DNA of 18,887 bases from a virus (taxonomy: Duplodnaviria > Heunggongvirae > Uroviricota > Caudoviricetes): IMG/VR virus record IMGVR_UViG_2778261087_000008. One strand, written 5' to 3'. Shown piece by piece: positions 2,742 to 18,286 of the stretch. How positions within the stretch are numbered: position 1 is the stretch's first letter; each line of letters opens with the position of its first letter. The translations under genes were made by a program, and so were the position numbers. The notes beneath the pieces are model-generated. The model worked only from the letters and a program-made list of their open reading frames with translations, searched no databases and was not told where the DNA came from.

Positions 2742-2765
2742 CGGTGTATCACTCGGTGTATCACT
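2742..2765 (+). repeat. Tandem 12-bp repeat cggtgtatcact x2, candidate integrase arm-type binding sites (left arm)
   Basis: Two perfect tandem copies 22 bp upstream of the int start codon; the same motif recurs at 18263-18286 near the right end. Confidence 0.5.
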
Positions 2766-2787
2766 CGCAACTGATTCTGAACTGTTT

Positions 2788-4011
2788 ATGGCTGGCACAA
2801 ACAAACTGAGCGACAAAAAGCTAAAAGCATTGCTGGGTTCTGAGCGTGAAGCGCCGATCATGATTGCCGATGGTGAGGGGCTAAGCGTTAAGGTCTCGAA
2901 GCAAGGTAACGTTAGCTGGGTATTTTCATACCGGTTGGGAGGAAGGGGTAGCAAACTCGAACGTTTAACGCTTGGCCGTTACCCTGATATGCCGCTAAAA
3001 CTTGCGCGAGAAAAGCGGGAACAGTGTCGCCAGTGGCTGGCTGGTGGGCTTGATCCGAAAACTGAGATTGAGCTGAGCACAGAAGAAACGCTTAAGCCTG
3101 TAACGGTTAAAGACGCCCTGGAATATTGGTTGGTGAATTACGCCAGGAGAAAGCGCAGTGATGAGGCGTTGGTGAGGGCGCAGCTACGCAAGCATATTTA
3201 CCCGCGCCTTGGTCGTTATCCGATCACCAGATGTGAAACCCGCCATTGGGTGGCCTGTTTTGACGAAATAAACCAGACTAAACCCATGACCGCCGGCCGC
3301 ATGTTCCAGATTTCTAAACAGGCGTTACGTTTCTGCAAGGTTCGCCGTTATGCTGCCAGTGATGCTCTGGCCTTTCTCACCATTCAGGATGTAGGCCAGC
3401 CATCTGGTCAACGTGATCGCGTATTGTCAGATAGCGAGCTGGCTGATGTGTGGCGCTGTACAGATAGCGATGATCAGCAGCCGTATTATTCACGTCTGCT
3501 CAAAATGCTGGTGCTTTTTGGTGCGCGAACGATGGAAGTTCGCCTTTCTCGATGGTCAGAGTGGGATTTTACATCGTGGATTTGGACTGTACCGAAAGAG
3601 CATAGCAAAACCCGAGAGAAAATCGTGAGGTCGATACCTGAAGCTATACGCCCGTGGCTGGAAGAGTTAAAGCGCGAGACAGGGAAAACAGGTTTGTTAC
3701 TGGGCGAAGATCGTACCCGTCAGGCTGTATCATTGAAAGGGCGCAGGCTTTTTAAAGATTTTCACCATAACGAGCCGTGGACACTTCACGATCTGCGTCG
3801 GACGTTTTCTACGGGGCTAAACAATATGGGTATAGCACCGCATATAGTCGAGCTGCTGTTGGGCCATGCCTTGCCGGGAGTTATGGCGATTTATAACCGT
3901 AGTCTTTACTTACCGGAGAAGCTGGACGCGCTGAACAAGTGGTATGACCGCTTAGAACTTCTCGCGGGTAATCACTCTAATATCGTTATTTTAAAGGCTG
4001 GTGAAAAATGA
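2788..4011 (+). CDS. int: Tyrosine site-specific integrase (P4-like phage integrase family)
   Basis: 407-aa ORF next to the left attachment site; C-terminal catalytic region contains HDLRRTF and LLGHALPGVMAIYNRS, consistent with the R..H-x-x-R..Y signature of tyrosine recombinases. Confidence 0.9.
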   Translation: MAGTNKLSDKKLKALLGSEREAPIMIADGEGLSVKVSKQGNVSWVFSYRLGGRGSKLERLTLGRYPDMPLKLAREKREQCRQWLAGGLDPKTEIELSTEETLKPVTVKDALEYWLVNYARRKRSDEALVRAQLRKHIYPRLGRYPITRCETRHWVACFDEINQTKPMTAGRMFQISKQALRFCKVRRYAASDALAFLTIQDVGQPSGQRDRVLSDSELADVWRCTDSDDQQPYYSRLLKMLVLFGARTMEVRLSRWSEWDFTSWIWTVPKEHSKTREKIVRSIPEAIRPWLEELKRETGKTGLLLGEDRTRQAVSLKGRRLFKDFHHNEPWTLHDLRRTFSTGLNNMGIAPHIVELLLGHALPGVMAIYNRSLYLPEKLDALNKWYDRLELLAGNHSNIVILKAGEK

Positions 4012-4811
4012 GAATTAGCCACAAAAAAGATTTGCCAACATGGTTTGATTTAGATAACTACACTCAATTTATTGGCATGTCAGATAAAGACTTATTTTAT
4101 CAGTTGGTTGTTAGATATGACATGCTTGAAAACTTCTATCGATATGGCGGGTCTTTTTATAATGAACCTCTTACAAATAACGATGAAGTAGGAAGGATAC
4201 TTGGAAATGGCGCGGTCGCTAATGCGATTGATAGAGCTACGTACTTCTATGATGCGTTTAAACTTCCTATTAAAAGAGAAGGTGTTTTGTCTGGTGGGGT
4301 TGCGTTACGACCAATGTCCATTGAAGACTTTATTTATATGAAAGATGCTGTAGATAATTATATGGAAAATAATTTTACGGGAACGGCTGAAAATTTAGTT
4401 TACCATTCATTTACAAGTGTTAGCTCATTTTTGGAACCAAATGACCTTTTTATTAAAGTTGATTTGTCACGCCCGGATGATTTATTGATTGATGTGTTTA
4501 AAAAAAACCTCAAGAATTGGCGTGAGGAATTAAAAATAAAAGAAAAGGAAAAAACATACCAGTCATGGGAAACAATTAAAAAAAAGGTATACGATTATTC
4601 ACTTTTCCCCGTAGTTGATTTGATGATCTGGGCTAAATCTCGCGGGGCATGCGTCACCAATGGCGTGCTTGCTGTGGCTGTGTTTCCGAACGGAGAGTAT
4701 GACTCAACGCAGATAGCGCAAACCGTAAAGCCAAATATAGAAAAAATCTTCTCAATTTCTTCTATAGAAAAAATCAGGTCAGAACTTCAGGATAGAAAAA
4801 TTCTTCCTTAA
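4008..4811 (+). CDS. Hypothetical protein, AT-rich cargo gene of unknown function
   Basis: 267-aa ORF whose ATG overlaps the int stop (ATGA at 4008-4011); sampled 60-bp lines give roughly 30% GC versus roughly 55-58% in the packaging module (approximate hand counts); no motif I can recognise. Confidence 0.75.
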   Translation: MRISHKKDLPTWFDLDNYTQFIGMSDKDLFYQLVVRYDMLENFYRYGGSFYNEPLTNNDEVGRILGNGAVANAIDRATYFYDAFKLPIKREGVLSGGVALRPMSIEDFIYMKDAVDNYMENNFTGTAENLVYHSFTSVSSFLEPNDLFIKVDLSRPDDLLIDVFKKNLKNWREELKIKEKEKTYQSWETIKKKVYDYSLFPVVDLMIWAKSRGACVTNGVLAVAVFPNGEYDSTQIAQTVKPNIEKIFSISSIEKIRSELQDRKILP

Positions 4812-4845
4812 TCTTGGTGGTCAAAACAATTTAATTTTCGTCTAG

Positions 4846-4862
4846 TGTGACATCCAATCACA
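4846..4862. promoter_or_regulatory. Inverted repeat TGTGA-N7-TCACA upstream of the alpA-like gene (candidate operator)
   Basis: tgtgacatccaatcaca; perfect 5-bp arms; resembles the CRP half-site pair but with a 7-bp rather than 6-bp spacer. Confidence 0.3.
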
Positions 4863-4906
4863 AGGATAACAATAGCCCCCACAAACTTAGAAACAGTGGA
4901 GGCAAC

Positions 4907-5191
4907 ATGCAAATTATCACCTTTACCCCGCCAAATCCTGAACAACGCCGCACCATTCTGGAGGAGTACGGCTTCAAGTTCGATCGCCGAATCCGCGAAG
5001 ATGAATGCAGCGAGATCACCAGTCTTTCTCGTTCGAGCCGCTGGAAGATGGAACAGCAGGGGCGCTTCCCGCCGCGCTGTCACTTTGGCCGCAACAGCTG
5101 TGCCTGGCTTCTTTCGGATGTGCTCTGGTGGGTTCGTAATCCGCCTGCCGTGGAAAACGTCAATAACCCGTACAGCCGCAAATCTGCTTAA
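4907..5191 (+). CDS. alpA: AlpA-family transcriptional regulator / excisionase-like DNA-binding protein
   Basis: 94 aa from the ATG at 4907, preceded by GGAGG at spacing 6; region ITSLSRSSRWKMEQQGRFPPRCHFGRNSCAWLLSDVLWWV matches the AlpA helix-turn-helix pattern (S.S..W......G.FP.......R...W...DV..W). The track ORF starts 20 codons earlier at 4847. Confidence 0.75.
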   Translation: MQIITFTPPNPEQRRTILEEYGFKFDRRIREDECSEITSLSRSSRWKMEQQGRFPPRCHFGRNSCAWLLSDVLWWVRNPPAVENVNNPYSRKSA

Positions 5192-5211
5192 TTAACCACA
5201 GGTAATCAGAG

Positions 5212-5895
5212 ATGAAAAATATTAATGCCCTTAACGGGCAGGGATTCGCTCACCCTGTTGCCAGTAAAAGCGATATTAGCGTGCAGCTTAAACAGCTTCC
5301 TGCCGTCGAATTTCACGGGCAACGCGTGGTGACGTTCGCAATGATTGATACCGCGCACCAGCGACCTAAAGACACGGCTAAAAAGACTTTTCAGCGTAAT
5401 CGTACTCGCTTCATTGATGGTGAGGACTTTTTTATTGTCGGCGCGTCAGAGGTCGAATGGGGAGGGGCTGGATATTTAGACAGGGGCATTAAACGCCCTG
5501 GCAAAAAAATGAACAGTCCGATACGTGGCCGCGTAACACTGATTACGGAATCAGGCTATCTGCTGCTGACCAAACCGTTTAACGATGATTTGGCCTGGCA
5601 GGTACAGCGCCAGCTCGTGAAAGCTTATTTCCGTTGCCCGGAGTTTGTCACTTTCCATCATGTGGATCTGCCGTCGCTCGAAGAACTGATCGCCATGCCG
5701 GTTACTGATGCGCAAAACGCCGTGACTCGTGCGGACAAGCATTCTAAGCAGTTTCATGGCTCACAGGGCAGTAATGGAATGAATCTCCGCAAGAAGGAAC
5801 TCAAAGTTCTGCGTCCGGCGGTACGGCTGGTAGATGCGATGGGGCAGATTGATTTCGATAAATATGAGTGGGAGGCGGCACATGATCGCGCATAA
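5212..5895 (+). CDS. ORF6N-domain phage regulatory protein (putative antirepressor-like)
   Basis: 227-aa ORF; N-terminal segment QRVVTFAMIDTAHQRPKDTAKKTFQRNRTRFIDGEDFFIV resembles the ORF6N/KilA-N-type consensus (..KRN.ERFPEDFMF..). Confidence 0.65.
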   Translation: MKNINALNGQGFAHPVASKSDISVQLKQLPAVEFHGQRVVTFAMIDTAHQRPKDTAKKTFQRNRTRFIDGEDFFIVGASEVEWGGAGYLDRGIKRPGKKMNSPIRGRVTLITESGYLLLTKPFNDDLAWQVQRQLVKAYFRCPEFVTFHHVDLPSLEELIAMPVTDAQNAVTRADKHSKQFHGSQGSNGMNLRKKELKVLRPAVRLVDAMGQIDFDKYEWEAAHDRA

Positions 5896-5921
5896 AACAA
5901 AGGCGACCGGGGGCGGTCGCC
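5890..5921 (-). terminator. Rho-independent terminator for the leftward regulator operon
   Basis: Hairpin ggcgaccg-gggg-cggtcgcc (5902-5921); on the minus strand it is followed by tttgtttta. Confidence 0.5.
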
Positions 5922-5988
5922 AATGGATACACACTAAACTTGAACGCATCACCAACAATGCCACATTTGCGGCTGGTGGGCAATGTGA

Positions 5989-6162
5989 TCAGTCAGATTT
6001 GGTTCGTCCCAAGGTTTGCAACGAGAGCTTTTTCCTGTGCTCTTTAAGGAATTTCTCAAGAGCAAACGAACAAGGTGCGAATCTTTCTGATTCATGCTCT
6101 ATCTTTCTGCGCCGTCTTTTCCGTGCCGGTGATAATGTTTTGGTCAATTCTTTATCGGTCAT
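5989..6162 (-). CDS. Small basic hypothetical protein, second gene of the leftward operon
   Basis: 57 aa from the internal ATG at 6162 (AGGA 7 nt upstream); arginine/lysine-rich (ARKRRRRK); sits between the RHH gene and the terminator. Confidence 0.4.
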   Translation of the reverse strand: MTDKELTKTLSPARKRRRRKIEHESERFAPCSFALEKFLKEHRKKLSLQTLGRTKSD

Positions 6163-6219
6163 TGTGTTGTCCTGCATAGCAATGCGCCGTAGTTACTCAC
6201 ACCACGGCGCTGATAGTGA

Positions 6220-6417
6220 TTATTCTGATTCTTTGGCCTTCCGGCGCTGTTCATATTTTAATTTGCGTCCACAGGCATCTAAGACCCATGCGGAAAAATT
6301 AGCACTAGGATTAGTTAATTTTTCTTGTTCAACGCTGGCATCAATCCCATCTATAAGCTCATGTGGGAATCGAATATTTTTCTTTGCTGATTTGTTGTTT
6401 GTGTTACCGCTAGACAT
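6220..6417 (-). CDS. Ribbon-helix-helix (Arc/Mnt-like) transcriptional repressor
   Basis: 65-aa ORF; segment IRFPHELIDGIDASVEQEKLTNPSANFSAWVLDACGRKL fits the Arc-type RHH pattern; GAGG ribosome-binding site upstream; transcribed divergently from the replication genes across an operator-rich intergenic region. Confidence 0.6.
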   Translation of the reverse strand: MSSGNTNNKSAKKNIRFPHELIDGIDASVEQEKLTNPSANFSAWVLDACGRKLKYEQRRKAKESE

Positions 6418-6445
6418 TGATGCACCTCACTTAAATGGACTTTAT

Positions 6446-6527
6446 GGGCGCACACAATACAGCAAAAAAAATGAGATGTTAAGTATTGACATGTGCGCAC
6501 ACATGATTTTAATCTGTGCGCACAGTT
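6446..6527. promoter_or_regulatory. Divergent promoter/operator region with palindromic TGTGCGCACA sites
   Basis: Perfect 10-bp palindrome tgtgcgcaca at 6492-6501 and 6515-6524, plus a half-site gcgcacaca at 6448-6456; TTGACA hexamer at 6486-6491 directly abuts the first palindrome. Confidence 0.5.
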
Positions 6528-6622
6528 TGAGTTTTGTCACTCAAATTAAGCAACGCCCCGCAGTGCTCGCAACACATGCAGGGCGTCTAACCACCAACGA
6601 TAGCAAGAGTATCGAGGTAGCT

Positions 6623-6826
6623 ATGAGAAATCATACCACACACCCGCAAGGGCGGGACTCGCACAACCTGAATAAATACATCTGGCGTTTTATCGCCCTG
6701 AGCACGGCACAACCGCGCGTGATTACCATTGAGGCCACCAGCGAACAGGAAGCACGCCAGCAATCCCCGGCTGGCTGCGTGATGGTATTCGCCGCCCGTA
6801 TTCGTCAGGGGGTGTGCCATGCCTGA
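6623..6826 (+). CDS. Small hypothetical protein (67 aa), first gene of the rightward operon
   Basis: ATG at 6623 preceded by GAGG; stop overlaps the start region of the next ORF (6819), suggesting translational coupling. It is the 3' portion of the long track ORF 5834..6826, whose upstream part is judged spurious. Confidence 0.4.
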   Translation: MRNHTTHPQGRDSHNLNKYIWRFIALSTAQPRVITIEATSEQEARQQSPAGCVMVFAARIRQGVCHA

Positions 6827-7139
6827 CATGACCAATTACCAGTACCTGATTAATCCGCATTTTAACTGTGAGCATGATATTGCTAAAAAGGTTTATTCCG
6901 CTGCGAATGGGGCTACTGACAATATATCAATGGCTGTTGCGTCAATTGGTAGCCTGATGTGGTATGCGTCAGAAAATGAGGAATATGACGAAAAGGCTAT
7001 GCGCATTGACATGGGGAATATTGGCTTGTTACTGGCAATGCTTGGGCAGTTTGATATTTCGTTACGGTGCACCATTGAAAATGCCACAGATGCATTAAAT
7101 GCCATAAAGAAAGCGAATACTGATTCAAATCGGGGATAA
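6819..7139 (+). CDS. Hypothetical protein (106 aa)
   Basis: ORF with a GGGGG ribosome-binding site 6 nt upstream; AT-rich; no recognisable motif. Confidence 0.55.
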   Translation: MPDMTNYQYLINPHFNCEHDIAKKVYSAANGATDNISMAVASIGSLMWYASENEEYDEKAMRIDMGNIGLLLAMLGQFDISLRCTIENATDALNAIKKANTDSNRG

Positions 7140-7145
7140 ATAATC

Positions 7146-7445
7146 ATGAGAACATATTTATCTGGCTTGACTGCCAGCGGTTATGCACACCCAAAAATTA
7201 TCCCCGGCGCTATTTATCTGGATAAGAACGGTAACAGAGTAACGGTAAAAGAGCTGATGTTTGACCGTGTTTATTTTATTCGTGATGGCTATTCATTTCA
7301 TAGTTCGCTGAACGTGGAGATCTTTATTAGCAGATTCAGGCGGGAAATCCCGCTTTCCAGAAATAACCATGTGTCACGTGTGGATGTAGATAAAAAACTA
7401 CAGGAACTGAAAAACATGATTGCCGCGTGGAGAGAGCAGAAATGA
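7146..7445 (+). CDS. Hypothetical protein (99 aa)
   Basis: ORF with a GGGGA ribosome-binding site; its stop overlaps the primase start (ATGA at 7442-7445). Confidence 0.55.
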   Translation: MRTYLSGLTASGYAHPKIIPGAIYLDKNGNRVTVKELMFDRVYFIRDGYSFHSSLNVEIFISRFRREIPLSRNNHVSRVDVDKKLQELKNMIAAWREQK

Positions 7446-9565
7446 AAAAAGCGCCAAATTTAAAACACCAGCCGCGTGACAAAATGACGGAAGTCATCAT
7501 TTTTGCGGGTAGTAATGCGTGGGCACATGCGAAGCAGTGGCAGGAACAGGACGGGCGACTGGCTGGCGATAACGTGCCTCCTGTCTGGCTTGGAGAGCAA
7601 CAACTTGCCGAACTGGACAACCTGCAAATCGTACCGGACGGACGCTATCGCGTGCGTCTCTATCAGGCGGGGTTATTGCGTCCGGGGCTTGTTAATACCA
7701 TCGGGCAGAAACTGGCAGCGGCAGGTGTCAGGGATGCTGATTATTACCCTGAAGGAATGCACAGCCAGAAACGGGAGAACTGGCGCGAATATCTGGAACG
7801 TGAACGGGCAGAGCAGGCGGAAAAGAAAAAGGTAGTTGAACTGCCTGTAAAGAAAAAAGAGCCATGCTATCAGGATGATGAATTAAAGCCCCGCGTTGAA
7901 AGTCGCGCCGATGGTGTTTTCTGGGTAACGCCCAAAGTGGATAAGCAGTCAGGTGAAATTATCCGGCCTGAGACGTGGTTATGTTCTCCGCTTGAACTAC
8001 TGGGAACGGGGACGATCGGTAAAGAGCATTACCGCGTGATGCGCTGGAAAAAAACCGCAAACCATGAAGTCATCACAATGGCGATCCCGTGTGGTGGTAT
8101 CGGCGACCGTGACGGCTGGCGGTTACTTAAAGATCACGGGCTGAACGTGACAACCAACGGCAAATACAGGGCAATCCTGGCGGACTGGATGCAGTTAAGC
8201 GGAAGCCATGAGGAATGGCAGTTAAGCACAACAACGGGCTGGCATTTTGGCGCGTACATCATGCCGGACGGTTCGATCATTGGTGATTCTGAAAAACCGA
8301 TCCTGTTTACCGGAAAAAGCGCCGCGATTAACGGTTATTCCGTGGCGGGTACGGCGGAGGGCTGGCGCGAGAGTGTGGCGCGGCTGGCTGGCGGTAATGC
8401 CTCAATGATGCTGGGTGTGGCAACGTCACTGGCAGCGCCTTTAATTGGCCTTGTGGGTGCTGACGGCTTCGGGGTGCATCTTTTCGAACAGTCATCGGCA
8501 GGTAAGACCACCACGCAGAACATCGCATCAAGTTTATGGGGAGAGCCGGACGCACAACGGCTTACCTGGTACGGAACGGCGTTAGGTATCGCCAACGAGG
8601 CAGAGGCGCACAACGACGGGCTGTTACCCCTGGATGAAATAGGCCAGGCCGGAAACGCGCGGGAGGTGTCCACGTCAGCCTATACGTTGTTTAACGGCTC
8701 CGGGAAATTACAGGGGGCGAAGGACGGCGGCAACCGGGAGATAAAACACTGGCGCACGGTGGCAATCAGCACCGGAGAAATGGACGTTGAGACATTCCTC
8801 AAAACGGAGGGGATAAAAGTCAAAGCGGGGCAGCTTGTCCGCCTGCTTAACGTTCCGATGGAAAAAGCCACGCAATTTCACGAATACAGCACCGGAAAGG
8901 CGCACGCAGACGCGTTAAAAGATGCCTGGACAGAAAATCACGGGGCGGCGGGTCGTGAATGGGTTAAATGGCTGGCAGACCACCAGCAGGAGGCAAAGGA
9001 TACGGTAAGGGAATGCCGCGAACGGTGGCGCAACCTGATACCGGATAGCTACGGCGAGCAGGTCCACCGCGTGGGGGAACGTTTCGCGATACTGGAGGCT
9101 GCGCTTGTGCTTTCCGGTCATGTAACTGGCTGGGCCGCGCAGGAATGCCGGGACGCAATACAGCATAACTTTAATGCCTGGGTGAAGGAGTTCGGCACGG
9201 GTAATAGGGAATTTAAACAGATGGTTGAACAGGCTGAGGCGTTTTTGTCGTCGTTCGGGTTCAGTCGATACCTTCCTTACCCAAACAGTGATGAGCGTGA
9301 TTTACCGATTAAAGACCTTGCCGGATACAGAAAGGGGAGTATCAGAAATGAAGATGATGAGTTCCGTTTTTACACGTTTCCTCATGTGTTTGAGGGGGAG
9401 ATCGCACAGGGATTTAACCCATCCCACTTTGCCCGCGCGTTGAGTGCTGCCGGAATGCTGGAAGCGGGTAACGATCGCCGTTACAAGAAAAAGGCGCTCG
9501 GCAAAATTGGGGGTAAGCAGCATGTTTTTTACGTGATGATGTTCCAGCCTGAGGCAGAAGATTAA
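7442..9565 (+). CDS. Replication initiator primase-helicase (Pri-Rep type, P4 alpha-like role)
   Basis: About 707 aa from the ATG at 7442 (GGAG 9 nt upstream); Walker A-like FEQSSAGKTTTQ in the central domain; large multidomain protein immediately followed by an iteron cluster. Family assignment by pattern memory, not search. Confidence 0.8.
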   Translation: MKKAPNLKHQPRDKMTEVIIFAGSNAWAHAKQWQEQDGRLAGDNVPPVWLGEQQLAELDNLQIVPDGRYRVRLYQAGLLRPGLVNTIGQKLAAAGVRDADYYPEGMHSQKRENWREYLERERAEQAEKKKVVELPVKKKEPCYQDDELKPRVESRADGVFWVTPKVDKQSGEIIRPETWLCSPLELLGTGTIGKEHYRVMRWKKTANHEVITMAIPCGGIGDRDGWRLLKDHGLNVTTNGKYRAILADWMQLSGSHEEWQLSTTTGWHFGAYIMPDGSIIGDSEKPILFTGKSAAINGYSVAGTAEGWRESVARLAGGNASMMLGVATSLAAPLIGLVGADGFGVHLFEQSSAGKTTTQNIASSLWGEPDAQRLTWYGTALGIANEAEAHNDGLLPLDEIGQAGNAREVSTSAYTLFNGSGKLQGAKDGGNREIKHWRTVAISTGEMDVETFLKTEGIKVKAGQLVRLLNVPMEKATQFHEYSTGKAHADALKDAWTENHGAAGREWVKWLADHQQEAKDTVRECRERWRNLIPDSYGEQVHRVGERFAILEAALVLSGHVTGWAAQECRDAIQHNFNAWVKEFGTGNREFKQMVEQAEAFLSSFGFSRYLPYPNSDERDLPIKDLAGYRKGSIRNEDDEFRFYTFPHVFEGEIAQGFNPSHFARALSAAGMLEAGNDRRYKKKALGKIGGKQHVFYVMMFQPEAED

Positions 9566-9589
9566 CTCCCCTGTGTGAGGTGAAAAGTT

Positions 9590-9711
9590 GCGGGTTATGC
9601 GGGTTATCCTGTGCATAAGTGAATTAACTGCATGAATAAAAAGGAAATCAATAACCCGCACGTAACCCGCAAAACGGCAGTTATAACCCGCAAAAGTGCG
9701 ATTATAACCCG
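9590..9711. repeat. Iteron cluster 1 (candidate replication origin): GCGGGTTAT x2 tandem, AT-rich spacer, ATAACCCGC x4 inverted
   Basis: Forward copies at 9590-9598 and 9599-9607; reverse copies at 9651, 9663, 9683 and 9703 with roughly 10-21 bp phasing; AT-rich segment between them; lies directly downstream of the primase-helicase gene. Confidence 0.65.
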
Positions 9712-9776
9712 CAGAATTTCACCGTAAGGGTGTAAACAAGCGTAACTATCAACGTTAAAACCGGAGAACAGACAGC

Positions 9777-10199
9777 ATGACAGCACAGATAGCAGCTTAC
9801 GGGCGGCTGGTGGCTGCCCCGCAGTTAAAGACCACCAGCAAGGGCACACAAATGGCTATGGCAAGCATGGCGGTCCCCCTGCCGTGCAATCAGGCAGATG
9901 ACGGACAGGCGACGATGTGGTTATCCGTCCTGGCGTTTGGCAGACAGGCCGACGCACTGGCAAAACACCACAAAGGCGAGCTGGTGAGCGTGGCGGGTAA
10001 CATGCAGGTAAGCCAGTGGACAGGCCAGAACGGGGAAACGCGGCAGGGCTGGCAGGTTATCGCAGACAGCGTAATCAGTGCCAGAACGGCGCGACCTGGT
10101 GGCAAAAAAGGCCAGCAGGGCCAGGCTACTGACGCTCTAAATAGGGCTAAGCAACAGGCGGGGAATGATGATCCATATGGGGATAACATACCCTTTTAG
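9777..10199 (+). CDS. Single-stranded DNA-binding protein (SSB-like)
   Basis: 140-aa ORF; N-terminal OB-fold-like pattern (IAAYGRL..., W..VLAFG...W); Gly/Gln-rich linker; C-terminal acidic tail ending DNIPF, like the DDDIPF tail of bacterial SSB. Confidence 0.75.
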   Translation: MTAQIAAYGRLVAAPQLKTTSKGTQMAMASMAVPLPCNQADDGQATMWLSVLAFGRQADALAKHHKGELVSVAGNMQVSQWTGQNGETRQGWQVIADSVISARTARPGGKKGQQGQATDALNRAKQQAGNDDPYGDNIPF

Positions 10200-10216
10200 C
10201 GATAACAGGGGGATAC

Positions 10217-10465: not shown

Positions 10466-10476
10466 AGCGATAAAGG

Positions 10477-11908: not shown

Positions 11909-11921
11909 TCATGAGTAAGGA

Positions 11922-11942
11922 GGAGGCTGCGGCCTCCTTTTT
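11922..11942 (+). terminator. Hairpin plus T-run immediately after the capsid gene (candidate partial terminator)
   Basis: ggaggc-tgcg-gcctcc followed by ttttt; sits 14 bp after the capsid stop. Confidence 0.45.
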
Positions 11943-11962
11943 CAGCTTTATGGAGTACACCG

Positions 11963-12523
11963 ATGAAAAACACCGATTTTGAAATCCGCACATCTGAACT
12001 GACCGCCAGCAATAAAAAGCTGGTGGGGTATGCCGTTCGCTGGAACAGCCTTTCAGAAATTATCTGGGACGAATTCCGCGAACAGTTCACGCCGGGGGCT
12101 TTTGCTGACTATCTGGCGGCGGGTAATGATGTGCGCTGCCTGTATGAGCATGACTATACCCAACTGCTGGGGCGCACCAAATCCGGCACTCTGGTACTGA
12201 CTGAGGATAACACCGGGTTACGTTTTGAACTGACACCGCCGGATACCCAGCTTGGAAAAGATGTGCTTACGCTGGTGGAGCGTGGCGACATTACAGGAAT
12301 GAGCTTTGGTTTTCGCGCATTATGCGAGGAGTGGAGTATCGCGCAAAAACCGTATTTGCGTACCGTAACCGCCGCTGAACTCCGTGAAATCACAATAACG
12401 TCGATGCCTGCTTATCCAGAATCTGGCGTGGAGATTGCCCACCGTTCGTTGTTTGCACAGCACCCTGAATTATGCCCGACAGGAAATAATCGTCATCGCT
12501 GGTCTGAGCTGGCGGGGTTGTGA
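11963..12523 (+). CDS. Phage prohead (head maturation) protease, HK97 family
   Basis: 186-aa ORF with the characteristic motifs EHDYTQLLGR and GMSFGF of the HK97 prohead protease family. Confidence 0.88.
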   Translation: MKNTDFEIRTSELTASNKKLVGYAVRWNSLSEIIWDEFREQFTPGAFADYLAAGNDVRCLYEHDYTQLLGRTKSGTLVLTEDNTGLRFELTPPDTQLGKDVLTLVERGDITGMSFGFRALCEEWSIAQKPYLRTVTAAELREITITSMPAYPESGVEIAHRSLFAQHPELCPTGNNRHRWSELAGL

Positions 12524-12524
12524 T

Positions 12525-13739
12525 ATGTGGTGGCCTTTTAGTCGTAAAAAAAGCGAGCAGCGTAACCTGTCCATTGATGATTTTCTGGCGCTGTCCGGCG
12601 TACCGAATACCGGATCCGGAGAATATGTTTCTGCCGGGACGGCTGAATCATTGCCTGCAGTGATGAATGCGGTTTCTGTCATCGCTGAGGCGGTGGCCAC
12701 GATGCCGTGTTATCTGTATCTGGTACGTAATGACAAGGGAAGGGAGGCGCGGGAATGGCTGGACAGTCACCCGGTAGATATTCTGCTGAATGAGCAGCCT
12801 AATTCGTGCCAGACACCTTACCAGTTTAAACGCACAATGATGCGTCACTGCCTGCTGAACGGTAACGCCTATGCGGTTATTGAGTGGGGGCAGGACGGGC
12901 AGCCAAAATCACTTCATCCTTATGCGCCGGGGTGTGTTGTACCGGAACGCACAGGCGCACACAAATACCGCTATACCATCACCGAACCCTATACAGGAAC
13001 GGTGCGCACGTATTTACAGGAAGAAGTTCTGCATCTCCGCTATGCCTCGGATGATGGCTTTCTGGGGCGCTCCCCCGTCACGATTTGCCGTGAGGCACTT
13101 GGGCTTGGCCTTGCTCAACAGCGCCACGGAGCCAGCATTATGAAAGATGGCATGATGGCGGCAGGGATTATCACGTCAGGCGAATGGCTGGACGGCGTGA
13201 AAGGTAAACAGGCATTGGATGCTCTGGAACGCTACAAGGGGGCGAAAAATGCCGGAAAAACGCCAATCCTTGAAGGGGGCATGGATTACAGGCAACTGGG
13301 AATGAGTAACCAGGATGCGGAATGGCTGGCCTCCCGTCGCTTCTCCATTGAAGACATCGCCCGCATGTTCAACGTATCGCCTATTTTTCTGCAGGAATAC
13401 AGCAACAGCACCTACAGCAATTTCAGCGAGGCAAGCCGCGCGTTTCTGACCATGACAATGCGCCCGTGGCTGGCGAACTTCGAACAGCAAATCAAGGCCG
13501 CTTTGCTGGTGGCTTCTCCCGTACCTGGTACCCGTTATCTGGTTGAGTTTGATTCAGCCGATTTATTACGCGCCACACCCACCGAACGTTATGCCACGTA
13601 TGAGAAAGGGATTAAGAACGGGATCATGAATCCGAACGAAGCCCGTGAGCGTGAGGGTATGCCGCCGCGTGAAGGTGGTGATGAGTTCAGCCAGGCATGG
13701 AAACAGACTGTGGAAATTAAAGGGAGAAAAGATGAGTGA
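12525..13739 (+). CDS. Phage portal protein, HK97 family
   Basis: About 404 aa from the ATG at 12525, 1 nt after the protease stop; size and position fit a portal. The track ORF 12435..13739 starts earlier and overlaps the protease gene. Confidence 0.85.
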   Translation: MWWPFSRKKSEQRNLSIDDFLALSGVPNTGSGEYVSAGTAESLPAVMNAVSVIAEAVATMPCYLYLVRNDKGREAREWLDSHPVDILLNEQPNSCQTPYQFKRTMMRHCLLNGNAYAVIEWGQDGQPKSLHPYAPGCVVPERTGAHKYRYTITEPYTGTVRTYLQEEVLHLRYASDDGFLGRSPVTICREALGLGLAQQRHGASIMKDGMMAAGIITSGEWLDGVKGKQALDALERYKGAKNAGKTPILEGGMDYRQLGMSNQDAEWLASRRFSIEDIARMFNVSPIFLQEYSNSTYSNFSEASRAFLTMTMRPWLANFEQQIKAALLVASPVPGTRYLVEFDSADLLRATPTERYATYEKGIKNGIMNPNEAREREGMPPREGGDEFSQAWKQTVEIKGRKDE

Positions 13740-14034
13740 AGCCAGAATTACACCTGATGAAGTCAGGGCACATCTTCGACTTGATGATGATTTATCCGGT
13801 GAAGGCGAACTTCTGAAAATGTATACCGATGCGGCGCTGGAAGCCTGCCAGAAGCATATCGGGAAACGTTTTGAAGACGGGCTGGAATTTACCCCGGCAA
13901 TGCGTGTTGGTTGCCTGATGTACATCGCTTTCCTGTACGAGAACCGGGAAGCGGTTTCACCAGTGGAGCACTCGGAACTGCCTATGGCTATTTCTGCGCT
14001 CTGGTCAGTTTATCGTGACGTAGGGGTGTACTGA
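13732..14034 (+). CDS. Phage head-tail connector (gp6-like) protein
   Basis: 100 aa from the ATG at 13732, overlapping the portal stop; N-terminal ITPDEVRAHLRLDDD matches the family pattern (..EVK.HLRID.D). Confidence 0.75.
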   Translation: MSEARITPDEVRAHLRLDDDLSGEGELLKMYTDAALEACQKHIGKRFEDGLEFTPAMRVGCLMYIAFLYENREAVSPVEHSELPMAISALWSVYRDVGVY

Positions 14035-14474
14035 TGCCGTGGCAACCATTAAGGCGATGCACTGAGCCTGGCTGTAATAAGCGCGTGAAGTCCGGCAAGT
14101 GTGAAGAGCACAGGCGGGCTGCATGGCGTGCAGAGGATGCCAGACGGGGACACCGCCGCGCGCGCGGGTATTCCCGACAGTGGGACAAATACCGCGCCCT
14201 GTACCTGAGCAAAAACCCGTTATGCGTGCGTTGTCTGGCTAAGGGGATTTATACGCCAGCTCTTGTGGTGGATCACATCATTCCCATCAATGGCGGCGGT
14301 GATGTTCTCTTCTGGCCTGAGTGGAATCACCAGGCATTGTGCCAGACGTGCCACAACCGTAAGACGACACGGGAAGATCCAGCCACGAAAGCAAACCGTA
14401 AAGCGGGCATGTATCGCGAGCAGGAAGAACGGGCGGCACACCGTAACGACTGGATGTATGGCGATGATGACTGA
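14034..14474 (+). CDS. HNH endonuclease (packaging-associated)
   Basis: 146-aa ORF with Cys-rich N-terminus and HNH motif DHIIPI...NHQALCQTCHNRKT; located directly upstream of the terminase genes. Confidence 0.85.
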   Translation: MPWQPLRRCTEPGCNKRVKSGKCEEHRRAAWRAEDARRGHRRARGYSRQWDKYRALYLSKNPLCVRCLAKGIYTPALVVDHIIPINGGGDVLFWPEWNHQALCQTCHNRKTTREDPATKANRKAGMYREQEERAAHRNDWMYGDDD

Positions 14475-14643
14475 ACAGGAGCAAACCAGGCTGATACGTG
14501 GACTGATAAGGCAGCGTGACACATGGAAGACACAGGAGACAGAGCACAAAGCCAACAGGACAGGGCGCACAAAACGCACCACAGCGAAGCGATTAACCGA
14601 CCGTGACCGCGAGGTCATGGAATGTTTTCGCAATCGCTGGTGA
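14458..14643 (+). CDS. Small basic hypothetical protein (61 aa), uncertain
   Basis: ORF overlapping the HNH 3' end in another frame; arginine/lysine-rich; no clear ribosome-binding site. Confidence 0.3.
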   Translation: MAMMTEQEQTRLIRGLIRQRDTWKTQETEHKANRTGRTKRTTAKRLTDRDREVMECFRNRW

Positions 14644-14651
14644 GGCCGTCA

Positions 14652-14711
14652 GAGGGGGTGGGGGTGGTTTTCAGGACGAAACCGTCCCTGCCGGACACCG
14701 ACCGCCCCCTC
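14652..14711. promoter_or_regulatory. G-rich nested inverted repeats upstream of terS (candidate cos / terminase recognition site)
   Basis: gagggggtgggggtgg ... ggacgaaaccgtcc ... ccccctc: outer arms GAGGGGG/CCCCCTC and inner arms ggacg/cgtcc, followed by an AT-rich tract (aatttttttgaaaataatt) before the terS ATG. Confidence 0.3.
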
Positions 14712-14762
14712 AAATTTTTGTGCACGGGAATTTTTTTGAAAATAATTGGGCGAAAAAAGAAC

Positions 14763-15119
14763 ATGGCAAGACCACCAAAAGCCCCCGCTTACCTGGATGA
14801 AATCGCGGTCAGGCAGTGGAAGGAAAAATCGCGCCAGCTTTCCGGGCGGGAAGACCTTACCCCCGCCGACTGGAGCAATCTGGAACTGTATTGTGTTAAC
14901 TACTCCATATACCGCAAAGCCGTCGAAGACCTTGCGACGCGCGGGTTCAGCATTGTTAACAGTCAGGGCAGCGAGAGCAGAAACCCCGCCCTGAGCGCAA
15001 AGGCTGACGCAGAAAGAATAATGATCAAAATGGCTTCTTTGCTGGGTTTTGACCCGGTAAGCCGCCGCAGAAATCCACCGGAAACAGAGGAAGAGGACGA
15101 GCTTGACCGCCTGGCATGA
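14763..15119 (+). CDS. Terminase small subunit (P27-family-like)
   Basis: 118 aa from the ATG at 14763 (MARPPKAPAYL...); acidic C-terminus; position immediately upstream of TerL. The track ORF begins at 14622 within the G-rich region. Confidence 0.78.
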   Translation: MARPPKAPAYLDEIAVRQWKEKSRQLSGREDLTPADWSNLELYCVNYSIYRKAVEDLATRGFSIVNSQGSESRNPALSAKADAERIMIKMASLLGFDPVSRRRNPPETEEEDELDRLA

Positions 15120-16764
15120 GTACGCAGAAGGCGTAAAAAACGGCAAAATTACGGCCTGTAAACGACTGAAACAGGCCGTTAAACGGTATTTTTCTGACCT
15201 TGAAAACCCCCTTTACACGTTCGATCCGGAGGTCGTGGAGCGGTTTATTGCCTTTTCCAGGGTGTGTCCGCACGTAAAAGGCGCAATGCGCGGTAGCCCC
15301 ATTGAGCTGGAGCCGTGGCAGCAGTTCGCCTTTGCGTGCATCCTGGGCTTTAAGGTTAAGGCCACCGGACGGCGCAAATACACCAGCGCATTCATTGAAG
15401 TACCGCGAAAAAATGCCAAATCCACGGTCGCCGCTATCCTGGCTAACTGGTTTCTGGTTATGGAAAACGGGCAGCAGGATATTTACACCGCCGCCGTGAG
15501 TCGTGATCAGGCGCGGATCGTGTTTGATGATGCGCGTCAGATGTGCCTTTTATCCCGACCGTTACGAAAGCGGGTAAATATTCAGGCACACAAGGTGATA
15601 CACCCGAAAACCAACAGCCTGTTAAAGCCACTGGCAGCAAAAGCGGCAACCATTGAAGGTACAAATCCGAGTCTTGCCATTGTGGATGAATATCACCTGC
15701 ACCCTGACAACGGGGTTTATTCCGCACTTGAGCTGGGGATGGGGGCGCGTCCGGAGGGGCTGTTATTTGCCATCACCACATCGGGGAGCAACGTTGTTTC
15801 AGCCTGTAAACAACACTATGACTATTGCTGTCAGATACTGGATGGTGAAGAGATGAACGAATCCATGTTCGTTCTGATTTACGAGCTGGATGATGAAAGC
15901 GAGGTTGACGATCCGGCGATGTGGATAAAGGCGAATCCAAATATCGATGTTTCCGTCGATCGTGAAAAACTGGCCTCAACCATCCAGAAAGCGCGGGGTA
16001 TTCCGTCGCAGTGGGTGGAAATGCTCACCAAGCGATTCAATATCTGGTGTCAGGGGGCTACGCCGTGGATGGGTAACGGTGCATGGGCGGAGTGCGCCGG
16101 AACGTTCGCGGAGGCGGATTTATACGGGCAGGAGTGCTACGCGGGGCTGGACTTATCATCAACCAGCGATATTTCCAGCGTGTGCTATGCCTTTCCGGTC
16201 GGTAAAAAGATTATGCTGGTTTCCCGTCACTATCTGCCGGAATTTCAGCTACAGAACCCCGCCAATAAAAACCGCGCCATCTATCGCCAGTGGGTAAAGG
16301 CGGGCTGGATACGCACAACACCGGGTGACTGCATTGATTATGACCGTATCCGTGATGACATCATGGCGGATGCAGAGAATTTCAATATCAGGCTGGTGGG
16401 CTTTGATACGTGGAACGCCACGCACCTGAGAACGCAGTTACAGGGGGCAGGCTTTGAGGTGGAGCCGTTCCCGCAAACCTACCTTCGTTTCAGTCCGGCG
16501 GCGAAATCGTTCGAGGTTTTTGTTAACCGGAAGGTGATTGTGCATCGTGGTGATCCGGTGCTGGCCTGGTCAATGAGTAATGTTGTGATGCAGAGTGACG
16601 CGAACGCCAATATCAAGCCGAACAAGAAAAAATCATCCAACAAGATAGACCCGAGCGTTGCGGCGCTGATGGCGTTTGGCACATTCCAGGCTGAGCATGA
16701 GGAATTTGCATTTGATATGAGCGACAGCCAGAAAGAGCGACTAGCGGCATTTGATGGGGTATGA
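15103..16764 (+). CDS. Terminase large subunit
   Basis: 553-aa ORF; ATPase region with Walker A-like VPRKNAKST and Walker B-like LAIVDEYH; apparent TTG start at 15103 (GAGGA 5 nt upstream) overlapping the terS 3' end by 17 nt. Confidence 0.88.
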   Translation: MTAWHEYAEGVKNGKITACKRLKQAVKRYFSDLENPLYTFDPEVVERFIAFSRVCPHVKGAMRGSPIELEPWQQFAFACILGFKVKATGRRKYTSAFIEVPRKNAKSTVAAILANWFLVMENGQQDIYTAAVSRDQARIVFDDARQMCLLSRPLRKRVNIQAHKVIHPKTNSLLKPLAAKAATIEGTNPSLAIVDEYHLHPDNGVYSALELGMGARPEGLLFAITTSGSNVVSACKQHYDYCCQILDGEEMNESMFVLIYELDDESEVDDPAMWIKANPNIDVSVDREKLASTIQKARGIPSQWVEMLTKRFNIWCQGATPWMGNGAWAECAGTFAEADLYGQECYAGLDLSSTSDISSVCYAFPVGKKIMLVSRHYLPEFQLQNPANKNRAIYRQWVKAGWIRTTPGDCIDYDRIRDDIMADAENFNIRLVGFDTWNATHLRTQLQGAGFEVEPFPQTYLRFSPAAKSFEVFVNRKVIVHRGDPVLAWSMSNVVMQSDANANIKPNKKKSSNKIDPSVAALMAFGTFQAEHEEFAFDMSDSQKERLAAFDGV

Positions 16765-17054
16765 CGAGAATGACTGAAACCGATCTACTAAAAATAATTC
16801 GCTGCGTTACCGGAGTCTGCCAGGCAACAGGCAAACCGGAGGCCAAGCAGCCGGATACCGTCACCGCTGAAAATTACGCGCGTGTGGTGGCTAAGGTGAT
16901 GCGCCGTGACGGTATTGAGCTTAACGGCGTGGATATGCGCAACATACGAACCAGAGTCCTTGAGTTGCTGGCATACCGTCGCCGTTCTCAACAACGGAGG
17001 GAGAGCGCGAAAAATAATTACCAGTGGAAGAAGCCGGAACGGTTGCGGCGGTAG
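16761..17054 (+). CDS. Hypothetical protein (97 aa), basic C-terminus
   Basis: ATG overlaps the terL stop (ATGA at 16761-16764); last ORF of the island; no motif recognised. Confidence 0.5.
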   Translation: MTRMTETDLLKIIRCVTGVCQATGKPEAKQPDTVTAENYARVVAKVMRRDGIELNGVDMRNIRTRVLELLAYRRRSQQRRESAKNNYQWKKPERLRR

Positions 17055-17055
17055 A

Positions 17056-17093
17056 TTCCTGATATTCAGGAAAACCACGAATCTGTGGGTTTT
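17056..17093 (+). terminator. Two tandem hairpins after the last island gene (candidate terminator)
   Basis: ttcctga-tat-tcaggaa (17056-17072) then aaaaccac-gaatct-gtgggtttt (17071-17092) with an A-tract before and T-tract after. Confidence 0.35.
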
Positions 17094-17393
17094 ACTGGCG
17101 CGGTTACGGCGGTGACACGCACCGAGGCAGAACAATTACCGTAGGTTAAAGCGACAGTATTCACACCAAAGGCAGAAATTAGCGGTTAACGTAACTGACT
17201 GATATTTTCAGGAACAGCCAACGGCTGAGGCCGGAGCTATAAGAATAGCTTTGGGTACAGTCCTCAGTTTTGAGGGATGTTAACCAACTGAATAATAAGC
17301 AAACCTCAAAATTGAGTTTTGTATCTGCCTGAGTTATTTCTGTGCTAACTTGTTGATATTCCAGACGGCCCAAAAATGGGTTGGCTGGTGGGT

Positions 17394-17511
17394 GAGTTGC
17401 AGATTTGCAACTCGACCATGAAACTACGGAAACTACCCGTAGTTTGGGTAGTAAGAGCAACACCCAGATTTTGGGGCTTACTCGCGATCCCCAAATAAAG
17501 GGGATCGGTGG
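17394..17511. repeat. 118-bp hairpin-dense repeat, copy 1
   Basis: Matches 17828-17945 at 113 of 118 positions; contains hairpins gagttgca-gatt-tgcaactc, aaactacgg-aaactac-ccgtagttt (overlapping the alternative ctaccc-gtagttt-gggtag) and gatcccc-aaataaa-ggggatc. Confidence 0.8.
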
Positions 17512-17541
17512 CATCACTGGCCCCACTTTCCTGATGTGTTT

Positions 17542-17693
17542 GCGGGTTATTTGGGAGAGGTTGCGGGTTATTTTGAATGACTTGCGGGTTACGATTTGGC
17601 TAACATTTGAACATGTCATTTTTCAACGCATTGATATTAAATAATAAAAAATACTTAGCACGCGAAGATAACCCGCTAACCCGCATAACCCGC
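17542..17693. repeat. Iteron cluster 2: GCGGGTTA(T) x3 phased at 21 bp, AT-rich spacer, ATAACCCGC x3 tandem inverted
   Basis: Forward copies at 17542, 17563 and 17584; AT-rich 17600-17665; reverse copies at 17668-17693. Same motif and architecture as cluster 1 at 9590-9711. Confidence 0.6.
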
Positions 17694-17827
17694 ACTGTTT
17701 TGTATATATATACGAAAAATTGCATTCAGGAGGGGTAGCAAAATCCCTACCGTCTCTTATCTCTTGGAGTGCCCGCCTCTTCGAATTTTAACCCCCGTGA
17801 AATTACAAAATTTCCCTGACTGATGGC

Positions 17828-17945
17828 GAGTTGCAGATTTGCAACTCGACTATGAAACTACGGAAACTACCCGTAGTTTGGGTAGTAAGAGTAACACCCA
17901 GATTTTGGGGCTTACTTGCGATACCCAAATACAGGGGATCGGTGG
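17828..17945. repeat. 118-bp hairpin-dense repeat, copy 2
   Basis: About 96% identical to 17394-17511; the five mismatches include taa to tac at the position of the copy-1 mini-ORF stop. Confidence 0.8.
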
Positions 17946-18262
17946 AAGAAATATCGTTTCTCATATGTGAGTACCGAGGGCGGAATTCCGCCTTCGGTTA
18001 CTTATTGTGCTCATGCACAGGGAGGGGCGGGTCAAATCTCTGTACCCTGACGTCTTCCGGACTGCCCGCTCCATCGATTTTTTATACCCGCGAAAAATGC
18101 TTCACGCTGGTGGGCATGATGCGTGGGGATGCTGATAATGGGTTATTGTGGGATAGATGTCTCATACAATAAGAGATTCATAATTTGCTTTTTAATACTG
18201 TTATACTCGCCGCCTTTCTACCGTGCTCATGCTTTCGCATATTTTCGGCTTTGTGCAATAAT

Positions 18263-18286
18263 CCGTATATCACTCGGTGTATCACT
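18263..18286 (+). repeat. Repeat ccgtatatcact + cggtgtatcact, candidate integrase arm-type binding sites (right arm)
   Basis: Shares 19 consecutive bp (tatcactcggtgtatcact) with 2747-2765; 64 bp upstream of the attR core. Confidence 0.5.

Follow-up and report, generated by a model that had tools for sequence, protein, structure and literature searches.

The 18,887-nt stretch of DNA analysed here (the window) runs from gcd through a 15.7-kb capsid-forming PICI to hpt, and the island is a phage satellite sitting in the E. coli hpt gene. It raises the question of what role is played by a perfect 19-bp direct repeat that lies inside both island ends. The repeat, TATCACTCGGTGTATCACT, is exact at 2747-2765 and 18268-18286, with no further match at up to three mismatches in the window. 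By chance, 0.01 matches would be expected, and two were reached in 0 of 200 shuffles. As the preliminary description reported, the repeat is embedded in tandem 12-bp units (2742-2765 and 18263-18286; Table 1), and the geometry given there also holds: 126 nt separate the left core from the left pair, 64 nt the right pair from the hpt ATG (18351), and the int ATG at 2788 follows 22 nt beyond the left pair. All four units are on the plus strand. The degenerate first unit of the distal pair (CCGTATATCA.T) is also found in islands L001 and L002 and in many IMG/VR right arms. Furthermore, similarity between the two arms reaches 58 nt (2708-2765 versus 18229-18286, 71%). A fifth 12-mer copy, inverted and with two mismatches, is located at 15594-15605 inside terL, at chance level (0.93 such copies expected).

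Table 1 Coordinates of the integrase, the att components and further arm elements in the window.
Feature	Position	Strand	Description and basis
attL core	2597..2615	+	host hpt start ATGAAACATACTGTAGAAG; empty-site matches, attB/attL/attR alignment
Crossover interval TGTAGAAG	2608..2615	+	attB/attL/attR alignment; flanked by discriminating positions 2607 and 2616
Conserved block GTTTTCATGCTTTTAGATGATTT	2629..2651	+	just inside core, int-proximal arm
A/T-rich block TATTATCAGTAAGAT	2675..2689	+	midway along int-proximal arm; attP alignment
Putative int-proximal arm site 1	2742..2753	+	CGGTGTATCACT; position and 12-bp phasing kept in relatives
Putative int-proximal arm site 2	2754..2765	+	CGGTGTATCACT; 22 nt 5' of int ATG
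Tyrosine integrase (Int), 407 aa	2788..4011	+	Pfam PF13356, PF22022, PF00589
AlpA-family protein, 94 aa from MQIITF	4907..5191	+	PF05930
Promoter-like element TTCGCA-17-AATAAT, TG extension	18234..18262	+	consensus scan only
Putative int-distal arm site 1	18263..18274	+	CCGTATATCACT; 2 mismatches versus the other three copies
Putative int-distal arm site 2	18275..18286	+	CGGTGTATCACT; 64 nt 5' of hpt ATG
Palindrome AACTGATTAAAATCAGT, island-borne	18320..18336	+	between distal pair and core
attR core	18351..18369	+	functional hpt start, ATT codon island-derived (MKHIVEV)

The island boundaries were located by comparison with unoccupied sites. Approximately 5,400 empty-site E. coli genomes match the window at 2400-2615/2618 only. 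Host sequence stops at 2615, position 2616 being C in the island and T in attB, and 2616-2741 together with 18287-18350 are island DNA. The attR counterpart of the crossover interval TGTAGAAG lies at 18362-18369. To the left of TGTAGAAG attL equals attB, and to the right of it attR equals attB, making attL and attR reciprocal chimeras of attB at this interval. The joined attP is present in a metagenome contig of 15.9 kb (hpt family) that is circular, its ends overlapping by 77 bp, and in which the order is pair, 64 bp, core, ~126 bp, pair and then int; the pairs therefore flank the core in the circle, as had been anticipated. For the fis family, the joined attP was found in particle DNA of vB_KppS-Ant and also in L023, L033 and L072. 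These circular and packaged forms keep two pairs 233 bp apart, not one pair, and the repeated motif, which has no relationship to the core sequence, is present on both sides of the core.

Besides core-binding and catalytic domains, the integrase possesses an N-terminal domain of the P4/HPI arm-binding type. This arm DNA-binding domain covers residues 7-93 (nt ~2806-3066; PF13356 Arm-DNA-bind_3, E 5.5e-19), and residues 7-96 match the solved arm-binding domains PDB 3JU0 and 3JTZ/3RMP (E ~5e-8). In BLASTP, the protein shares 24% identity with P4 Int over 299 aa (E 3e-19), and it is a distant member of the P4 integrase family.

Relatives of the island were retrieved through Int alone. hpt islands whose int is 87%, 73% and 65% identical at the nucleotide level keep both pairs, while the arm sequence between them diverges and the cargo differs (a capsid-forming PICI, a P4-like satellite and another island). 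Their spacing is 147-148 bp from the ATG to the proximal pair and 85-86 bp from the distal pair to the ATG. The fis PICIs, which are sisters of these islands, display the same layout with the motif TGTATAAACA, and in five attP forms from the hpt and fis families the two pairs are 233-234 bp apart. The expected conservation of motif pairs and spacing at both arms is thus borne out in related islands. More specifically, the four copies change in concert, from CACT to CAAT among hpt islands and to TGTATAAACA in the fis PICIs. No single residue of the Int N-domain was found to track CACT versus CAAT; L16/Q16, tried as a candidate, fails in L081-L084.

On a broader scale, 45 of 60 Int relatives (41-97% identical; Enterobacterales, Vibrionaceae and Shewanellaceae) carry a pair with a 12-bp period no more than 100 bp upstream of int, defined by at least 10 of 12 matching positions at that period, for which the null rate is 0.5%. 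Seven or more classes of motif were distinguished, and a co-oriented partner pair at the far end was seen in nine islands short enough for the fetched locus. Motif classes go with Int clades, att and int being physically linked. This covariation could in part reflect co-inheritance rather than co-adaptation, because the circular arms, the core and int form one contiguous module of ~1.6 kb. The motif is uncoupled from the neighbouring DUF6387 gene. It also varies within one host species, so that a host factor is unlikely to be its binder.

The arm domain of Int, the crossover at the core, the conserved spacing, the concerted change and the layout in common with P4 point to the reading favoured in the preliminary description. 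We consider it highly probable that the four 12-mers are arm-type sites bound by the heterobivalent tyrosine integrase that the island itself encodes, a feature of an ordinary and already known kind. In the P4 record NC_001609 (Pierson and Kahn 1987), tandem 12-bp repeats are annotated as "attP arm sequence repeats". As in the window, these are co-oriented tandem 12-bp pairs, one on each side of the core and the proximal one directly upstream of int, and the two integrases have the arm-binding domain family in common. The proximal pair is 15 nt from the int ATG in P4 and 22 nt here; its distance from the core is 112 nt in P4 versus 126 nt here, and that of the distal pair 53 nt versus 64 nt. 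In contrast, the P4 motif is TTGGGGGCATAA rather than CGGTGTATCACT, its core is a tRNA-Leu 3' end rather than the hpt 5' end, and its pairs are 209 bp instead of 233 bp apart. P4 also has a lone copy at the int ATG and another within int, neither of which was found here.

A doubled motif equivalent to the 12-mers, tgTGTATTGCantgTGTATTGCa, has been described in helper-embedded PICIs (HE-PICIs), with one copy 81 ± 2 bp upstream of the attP centre and a second, in the same orientation, 132 ± 2 bp downstream (PMC10111431, 2023). That study names fis and hpt PICIs as closely related, calls the doubled motif unique to HE-PICIs and does not decide whether the Int arm domain, AlpA or an unknown factor binds it. 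The integrase clade is shared, and the distances in the window (79.5 and 130.5 bp from the TGTAGAAG centre to the nearest motif edge) agree with the HE-PICI spacing, the measuring convention of the paper being uncertain. The window motif cgGTGTATCACTcgGTGTATCACT would act in the same way as the HE-PICI motif. It is not the same motif, as it has the TGTAT 5' half of tgTGTATTGCantgTGTATTGCa, not TTGC, and its 3' half is CAC/CAA where that of HE-PICIs is TGC. In contrast to the published account, hpt and fis PICIs have their own versions of the motif, and AlpA is disfavoured as binder here. In phage lambda, heterobivalent Int bridges the core and the attP arm sites P1, P2 and P'1-P'3, with accessory bending proteins and a directionality factor also involved (PMC2951348). 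There, too, arm sites flank the core and have no sequence relationship to it. The five lambda sites are arranged 2+3, not as strictly tandem 12-bp units (2+2); the N-domain of lambda Int is of another family, and xis and int are co-transcribed. In the window, int points away from the core.

The preliminary description had also considered that the pairs might be the true crossover, which would move the island boundaries further inward, and such a role would suit a 19-bp direct repeat that is perfect, lies close to either end and exceeds the imperfect core repeat in length. Since exchange is confined to TGTAGAAG in the hpt start when attB, attL and attR are compared, the 12-mers are not the crossover; with host DNA ending at 2615/2618, chimeras at TGTAGAAG and two pairs in circles, this idea can be practically dismissed. 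The same applies to a chance match or a functionless remnant of neutral duplication, for which only the small size of the motif speaks, against 0 of 200 shuffles, 45 of 60 Int relatives versus the 0.5% null and the concerted change of the copies. The AlpA-family protein, likely an excision or regulatory factor, had been named as a further possible binder and could occupy the 12-mers instead of Int, as a directionality factor or transcription regulator. Its gene lies 2 kb from int, tandem direct repeats in a single arm are frequent targets of directionality factors, and for the equivalent HE-PICI motif the protein was kept as a candidate (PMC10111431). However, AlpA is 96-98% identical in the fis PICIs L019, L023, L089 and L090, whose arm motif is TGTATAAACA, and 94% identical in L054, where GGAACAACT repeats precede int. 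Conversely, L064, L072 and L086 have GTGTATCACT in common with the window and an AlpA that is only 44-49% identical. Sites of directionality factors normally occupy one arm only, whereas the 12-mers are symmetric pairs in both arms, fitting four Int protomers. With AlpA identity uncoupled from that of the motif, we regard AlpA as a decidedly improbable binder. The motif follows the att-int module and not AlpA, and these natural AlpA/motif swaps argue that the integrase itself reads it.

Alternatively, the pairs may act mainly as transcriptional operators within a duplicated promoter-operator module that serves int on the left and, on the right, an hpt promoter brought in by the island; they would then contribute little to the architecture of recombination. 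The similarity of the arms, which continues for 34 nt upstream of each pair to give a 58-nt repeat at 71%, the TG-extended -10-like element abutting the distal pair and the position of the proximal pair 22 nt 5' of int are consistent with such a module, and autorepression of Int via att sites is already known. Yet a pure operator would need neither a distance to the crossover fixed within 1 bp nor 233-234 bp from pair to pair across families with different cores, and the layout equals that of the P4 attP arm repeats. Moreover, the fis family needs no promoter because its insertion is at a 3' end. A mainly regulatory function is improbable on these grounds, while an operator role and an arm-site role are not mutually exclusive.

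With the 12-mers as arm sites of Int, excision would join the island ends into an attP of ~340 bp, consisting of the distal pair, 64 bp, the hpt-start core, ~126 bp, the proximal pair, 22 bp and int. The arm-binding domains of four Int protomers would dock on the four co-oriented sites, and the catalytic domains would hold the core and attB. The arms, each probably bent, would wrap into an intasome, with strand exchange taking place inside TGTAGAAG of the hpt start. In the integrated state, one pair in attL and one in attR would serve an excisive complex together with AlpA. Int binding and the intasome are deduced here from sequence. The proximal pair also separates the int start codon from any conceivable int promoter; the int promoter itself was not located here. 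P4 Int represses its own promoter through att-overlapping sites (PMC7286903), and negative autoregulation of KplE1 IntS via attL arm sites has been shown experimentally (PMC2951348). As in KplE1, int adjoins attL and is transcribed away from it, with a promoter region overlapping arm sites. By this position and by analogy with both integrases, Int bound to the proximal pair probably also represses its own gene, an autoregulation that is experimental for IntS and inferred here.

Further elements accompany the pairs. The block GTTTTCATGCTTTTAGATGATTT is common to fis PICIs with near-identical AlpA and absent from L064/L072, where AlpA is only 44-49% identical; it is a candidate accessory-factor site. 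Within the A/T-rich block, an ATTATCA/ATAATCA column is kept in all attPs compared. In the fis family, the corresponding mid-arm block matches the IHF consensus perfectly (L161, AATCAATGTGTTG); in the window it is three mismatches off, and an IHF pattern scan of the window arms returned no site at up to one mismatch. The palindrome AACTGATTAAAATCAGT also adjoins the fis core in fis PICIs.

The promoter-like element at 18234-18262 abuts the distal pair and points at hpt, or at int in the circle. Its TGcGATAAT is retained in related right arms, while the fis family reads GAGCCA at the position aligned with GATAAT, a difference that fits an adaptation to the 5'-end target. It is possible, if rather doubtful, that the distal pair doubles as an operator for this putative promoter and places int and hpt under Int control. 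In the lysogen, the element would then stand in for the hpt promoter that the island displaced; in the excised circle, it would read across attP into int. The int promoter would switch from the host hpt promoter when integrated to the promoter at the island 3' end when circular, and both inputs would be gated by Int on its own arm sites. State-dependent switching of int promoters is known from ICEKp1, ICEclc and ICEEc1 (PMC13023037, 2026), where int likewise follows a host promoter when integrated and a promoter at the 3' end of the element when circular; the hpt promoter and the promoter-like site would be the candidate counterparts. Those elements target tRNA genes, whereas the target here is the 5' end of a protein-coding gene, so that hpt, too, would have to depend on the 3'-end promoter. 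If true, a host purine-salvage gene would be controlled by the integrase of a satellite.

As a whole, these results leave the known mechanism of arm-dependent tyrosine integrases unchanged, but they correct the published impression that the doubled attP motif is a peculiarity of HE-PICIs. The layout, with clade-specific motifs, is found in hpt PICIs, fis PICIs, P4-like satellites at hpt, and Vibrio and Shewanella relatives. For hpt-targeting satellites, it provides a testable attP map with four putative arm sites, a crossover interval of 8 bp and spacings that are fixed, which may be useful for integration vectors or for engineering capsid-forming PICIs.

The 15.7-kb island in the window, located between gcd and hpt, carries near each end a tandem pair of 12-bp units, and the evidence supports the interpretation of these four co-oriented units as putative arm-type sites of the island integrase. 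The left pair, proximal to int, lies 126 nt inward of its hpt-start core repeat and 22 nt ahead of the int ATG, and the right, distal pair is separated from the hpt ATG by 64 nt. Both pairs contain an exact 19-mer, and two copies were reached in 0 of 200 shuffles. The preliminary description of this repeat and its geometry proved accurate. Besides the integrase and an AlpA-family protein, the island encodes a DUF6387 protein, a DUF927 primase, SSB, an HK97-type capsid protein, prohead protease, portal, connector, HNH endonuclease, TerS and TerL. Such a gene set is that of a capsid-forming phage-inducible chromosomal island (PICI); hpt PICIs have been catalogued (n=49; PMC10111431) in a paper whose lists of fis and hpt PICIs run to thousands.

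Coordinates of genes, attachment sites and repeats in the window
Feature	Position	Strand	Units or content
gcd	1-2409	minus	
Core, left; right	2597-2615; 18351-18369		hpt-start repeat
Exchange segment	2608-2615; 18362-18369		TGTAGAAG
ORF at attL	2597-2644		15 codons, MKHTVEAKNFVFSCF then stop
Weak int promoter match	2653-2680		GTGAAA-16-TATTAT
34 nt 5' of the pairs	2708-2741; 18229-18262		part of 58-nt repeat D2
Proximal (left) pair	2742-2765		CGGTGTATCACT twice
Distal (right) pair	18263-18286		CCGTATATCACT then CGGTGTATCACT
Exact 19-mer	2747-2765; 18268-18286		
Tyrosine integrase (int)	2788-4011		Arm-DNA-bind_3 domain
AlpA-family protein	4907-5191		
9-mer clusters	9589-9713; 17541-17694		TAACCCGCA, six exact copies each
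Motif-like copy in terL	15594-15605	minus	GGGTGTATCACC
121-nt direct repeat	17391-17511; 17825-17945		95% identical
AT-rich stretch	17695-17720		
Palindrome	18320-18336		AACTGATTAAAATCAGT
Altered hpt start	18351-18372		ACT to ATT
hpt	18351-18887		

In ~5,400 E. coli genomes whose site is empty, the match to the window runs from 2400 to 2615/2618 only, and hpt starts there. Alignment of this empty site (attB) with both island junctions revealed that attL equals attB as far as ...ACATACTGTAGAAG and that attR equals attB from TGTAGAAGTAATG on. Since attL and attR are thus reciprocal chimeras of attB, the exchange is confined to the 8 bp TGTAGAAG at the hpt start. The island supplies ATT (giving an hpt start of MKHIVEV) and CAAAAAAC, and the DNA between the cores and the 12-mers is island DNA. 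The alternative that the 12-mers themselves are the real crossover site, raised in the preliminary description, is refuted by the empty sites, by this alignment and by a circular contig that retains both pairs. After integration, Hpt carries Ile instead of Thr at residue 4, P4-like satellites at the hpt site give Tyr at this residue (TAT in locus L003), and the entire hpt upstream region is replaced by the island.

The circular form is represented by an IMG/VR metagenome contig of 15,908 bp, taken as a circular assembly because of its 77-bp terminal overlap, with an integrase 94% identical to that of the window. Its attP reads ...CCGTATATCAAT CGGTGTATCAAT, 64 bp, ATGAAACATATTGTTGAAG joined to CAAAAAAC, ~126 bp, CGGTGTATCAAT CGGTGTATCAAT and int; the junction of the window island, for which E. 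coli SB0258h1 and D8 are among the carrier strains, would read ...ATGAAACATATTGTAGAAGCAAAAAAC.... A sister family inserts at the fis 3' end (checked by the Fis C-terminus) and has the same attP layout with TGTATAAACA pairs; its joined form occurs in contigs L023, L033 and L072 and in DNA from particles of vB_KppS-Ant, an induced element. An island-borne palindrome lies in the window between its distal pair and core; fis PICIs have an almost identical one, AACTGATTAGTATCAGTT, directly next to the crossover region and overlapping the fis stop codon. The window copy may be left over from a fis-type attP or serve as an accessory-protein binding site. A scan for the IHF consensus WATCAANNNNTTR (≤1 mismatch) found no site between the cores and pairs in the window, only a conserved A/T block. 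The 34 nt 5' of each pair are ~65% identical between the two arms, and in fis PICIs both pairs likewise follow a TGYGCRA..AA-like element, which could represent a third, degenerate arm unit or the site of another factor.

Relatives were picked via the integrase alone, so the motif did not bias their choice. Three more island classes were found between gcd and hpt in E. coli. Locus L001 (int 87% identical at the nucleotide level, not capsid-forming) has CGGTGTATCAAT twice in the proximal and CCGTATATCAAT CGGTGTATCAAT in the distal pair; L002 (73%, a capsid-forming PICI) has TGGTGTATCACT twice and CCGTATATCATT CGGTGTATCACT; and L003/L004 (65%, a P4-like satellite) have ACGTGTATCAAT GCGTGTATCAAT and TTGTGTATCAAT CGGTGTATCAAT. 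The remainder of the arms has diverged in the hpt islands and is unalignable in L003. Despite this divergence, the hpt-type ATG lies 147-148 bp from the proximal 10-mer and the distal 10-mer 85-86 bp from the hpt ATG, while five attP forms, belonging to three families, have a start-to-start distance of 233-234 bp from distal to proximal pair. Both pairs are thus kept with a spacing constant to within 1 bp. In an alignment of eight attPs they form the best-conserved blocks, with GTGTAT or TGTAT invariant and a clade-dependent 3' half. Replacement of CACT by CAAT or AAACA affects the four copies within an element jointly, as would be expected if one protein reads all four sites.

Scanning a single genome per species yielded 80 loci, of which 60 were scored (Int 41-97% identical; Enterobacterales, Vibrio, Photobacterium, Shewanella and Ferrimonas). 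A tandem pair (12-bp period, at least 10 of 12 positions matching, within 100 bp upstream of int) was present in 45 of the 60, versus 0.5% of shuffled controls. The tabulated pairs end 8-48 bp ahead of the int start, with the exception of L131 (71 bp), where six tandem copies reach to ~25 bp from it; some relatives (L084, L113, L131) carry 3 to 6 perfect tandem units. Motif classes include GTGTATCA[C/A]T, TGTATAAACA, GTG[T/C]AGTCAGT, GGGGTACAT, GCGTGTAACCA, GTGTAGTCAC and GTGCCCCC. Co-oriented far-end partner pairs were found in nine islands short enough for the fetched locus (L081, L086, L098, L101, L127, L128, L136, L139, L140). Most fis PICIs have TGTATAAACA; since some others (L055, L064, L072, L086) share the motif GTGTATCACT with the window, arm-motif class and core specificity are reassorted among these integrases.

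The layout is that of P4, for which GenBank lists "attP arm sequence repeats", tandem and of 12 bp, at 3942-3965 and 4151-4174 around a core at 4078-4097, with the int ATG at 3926; the P4 motif differs (TTGGGGGCATAA) and the integrases are 24% identical. P4 carries an extra arm repeat within a coding region. An inverted copy inside terL in the window has two mismatches and was rejected as chance level (0.93 expected per window). Helper-embedded PICIs have a doubled motif, tgTGTATTGCantgTGTATTGCa, at distances of 81 ± 2 and 132 ± 2 bp to the centre of attP, described as unique to them and with its binder left open (PMC10111431). The corresponding distances in the window are 79.5 and 130.5 bp, and the window feature is thus the form which that motif takes in hpt PICIs. 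The doubled-motif layout is shared beyond helper-embedded PICIs and so is not unique to them.

As to which protein reads the motif, the preliminary description favoured the integrase and named AlpA as a possible binder. The arm-type reading gains support, as the pairs flank the core in the joined attP and the motif travels with Int, whereas AlpA is disfavoured since its identity is uncoupled from the motif. The window AlpA reaches 96-98% identity in comparison with fis PICIs whose arms have TGTATAAACA (L019, L023, L089, L090), yet only 44-49% with fis islands sharing GTGTATCACT (L064, L072, L086). It is also 94% identical to AlpA of L054, where GGAACAACT repeats precede int, a comparison qualified by the composite nature of that locus. 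The other candidates fail: the DUF6387 gene adjoining int is missing in L001-L003, replication and packaging genes differ between island types, and a host factor is at odds with motif variation among islands within E. coli.

Int is thus, across the loci compared, the sole protein travelling with the motif, and at its N-terminus it has an arm-binding domain of the type solved for HPI and CP4-like integrases. Linkage contributes to this covariation, because the circle unites arms, core and int in a single contiguous module. Int position 16 is L with CACT and Q with CAAT in eight sequences, but L081 combines Q with CACT and L082-L084 combine A with CAAT, so that it fails as a specificity residue; no single N-domain residue was found to track the C/A difference, and we therefore make no residue-level claim. 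L054 was dropped as a natural N-domain swap and unused as evidence on Int domains because the locus is composite, combining the remnant of a fis left arm, bearing GTGGGGCACA twice, with a second element. In this locus at fis (2459-2840 of IMG/VR contig 2875658422_000001), the remnant carries a further doubled motif, P4-like, TGTGGGGCACA TGGTGGGGCACA, and a truncated int start; in the second element, int is preceded by six copies of TGGAACAACT, three in direct and three in inverted orientation.

Elsewhere in the island, the 9-mer TAACCCGCA forms two clusters in which copies have either orientation and some follow a 21-bp phase; the first lies directly 3' of the DUF927 primase gene and the second near the right end, adjoining an AT-rich stretch. 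At ≤1 mismatch it gave 15 matches against 4.8 expected, a count reached in 0 of 200 shuffles. Because the clusters resemble the ori and crr iteron arrangement annotated in P4, they are likely the island replication origin and a second cis site. On either side of the second cluster lies a 121-nt direct repeat holding several short hairpin-like inverted repeats; neither it nor the window as a whole matched an Rfam family (0 matches).

Negative autoregulation of int via att-overlapping sites is established for P4 (PMC7286903) and KplE1 (PMC2951348), and is likely a second role of the proximal pair. In the window, a consensus scan for an int promoter found only one weak match and no element overlapping the proximal pair, so that this role is still inferred. 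The hpt start displaced to attL runs on into island DNA as a short ORF, and the native hpt promoter now faces int with no terminator-like site predicted between them, an arrangement comparable to the tRNA-promoter-driven int of ICEKp1 (PMC13023037). Switching of the int promoter upon integration is speculative. The value of these findings lies in a clean attP map, in its generalisation across the integrase clade and, more speculatively, in the promoter-switch reading.
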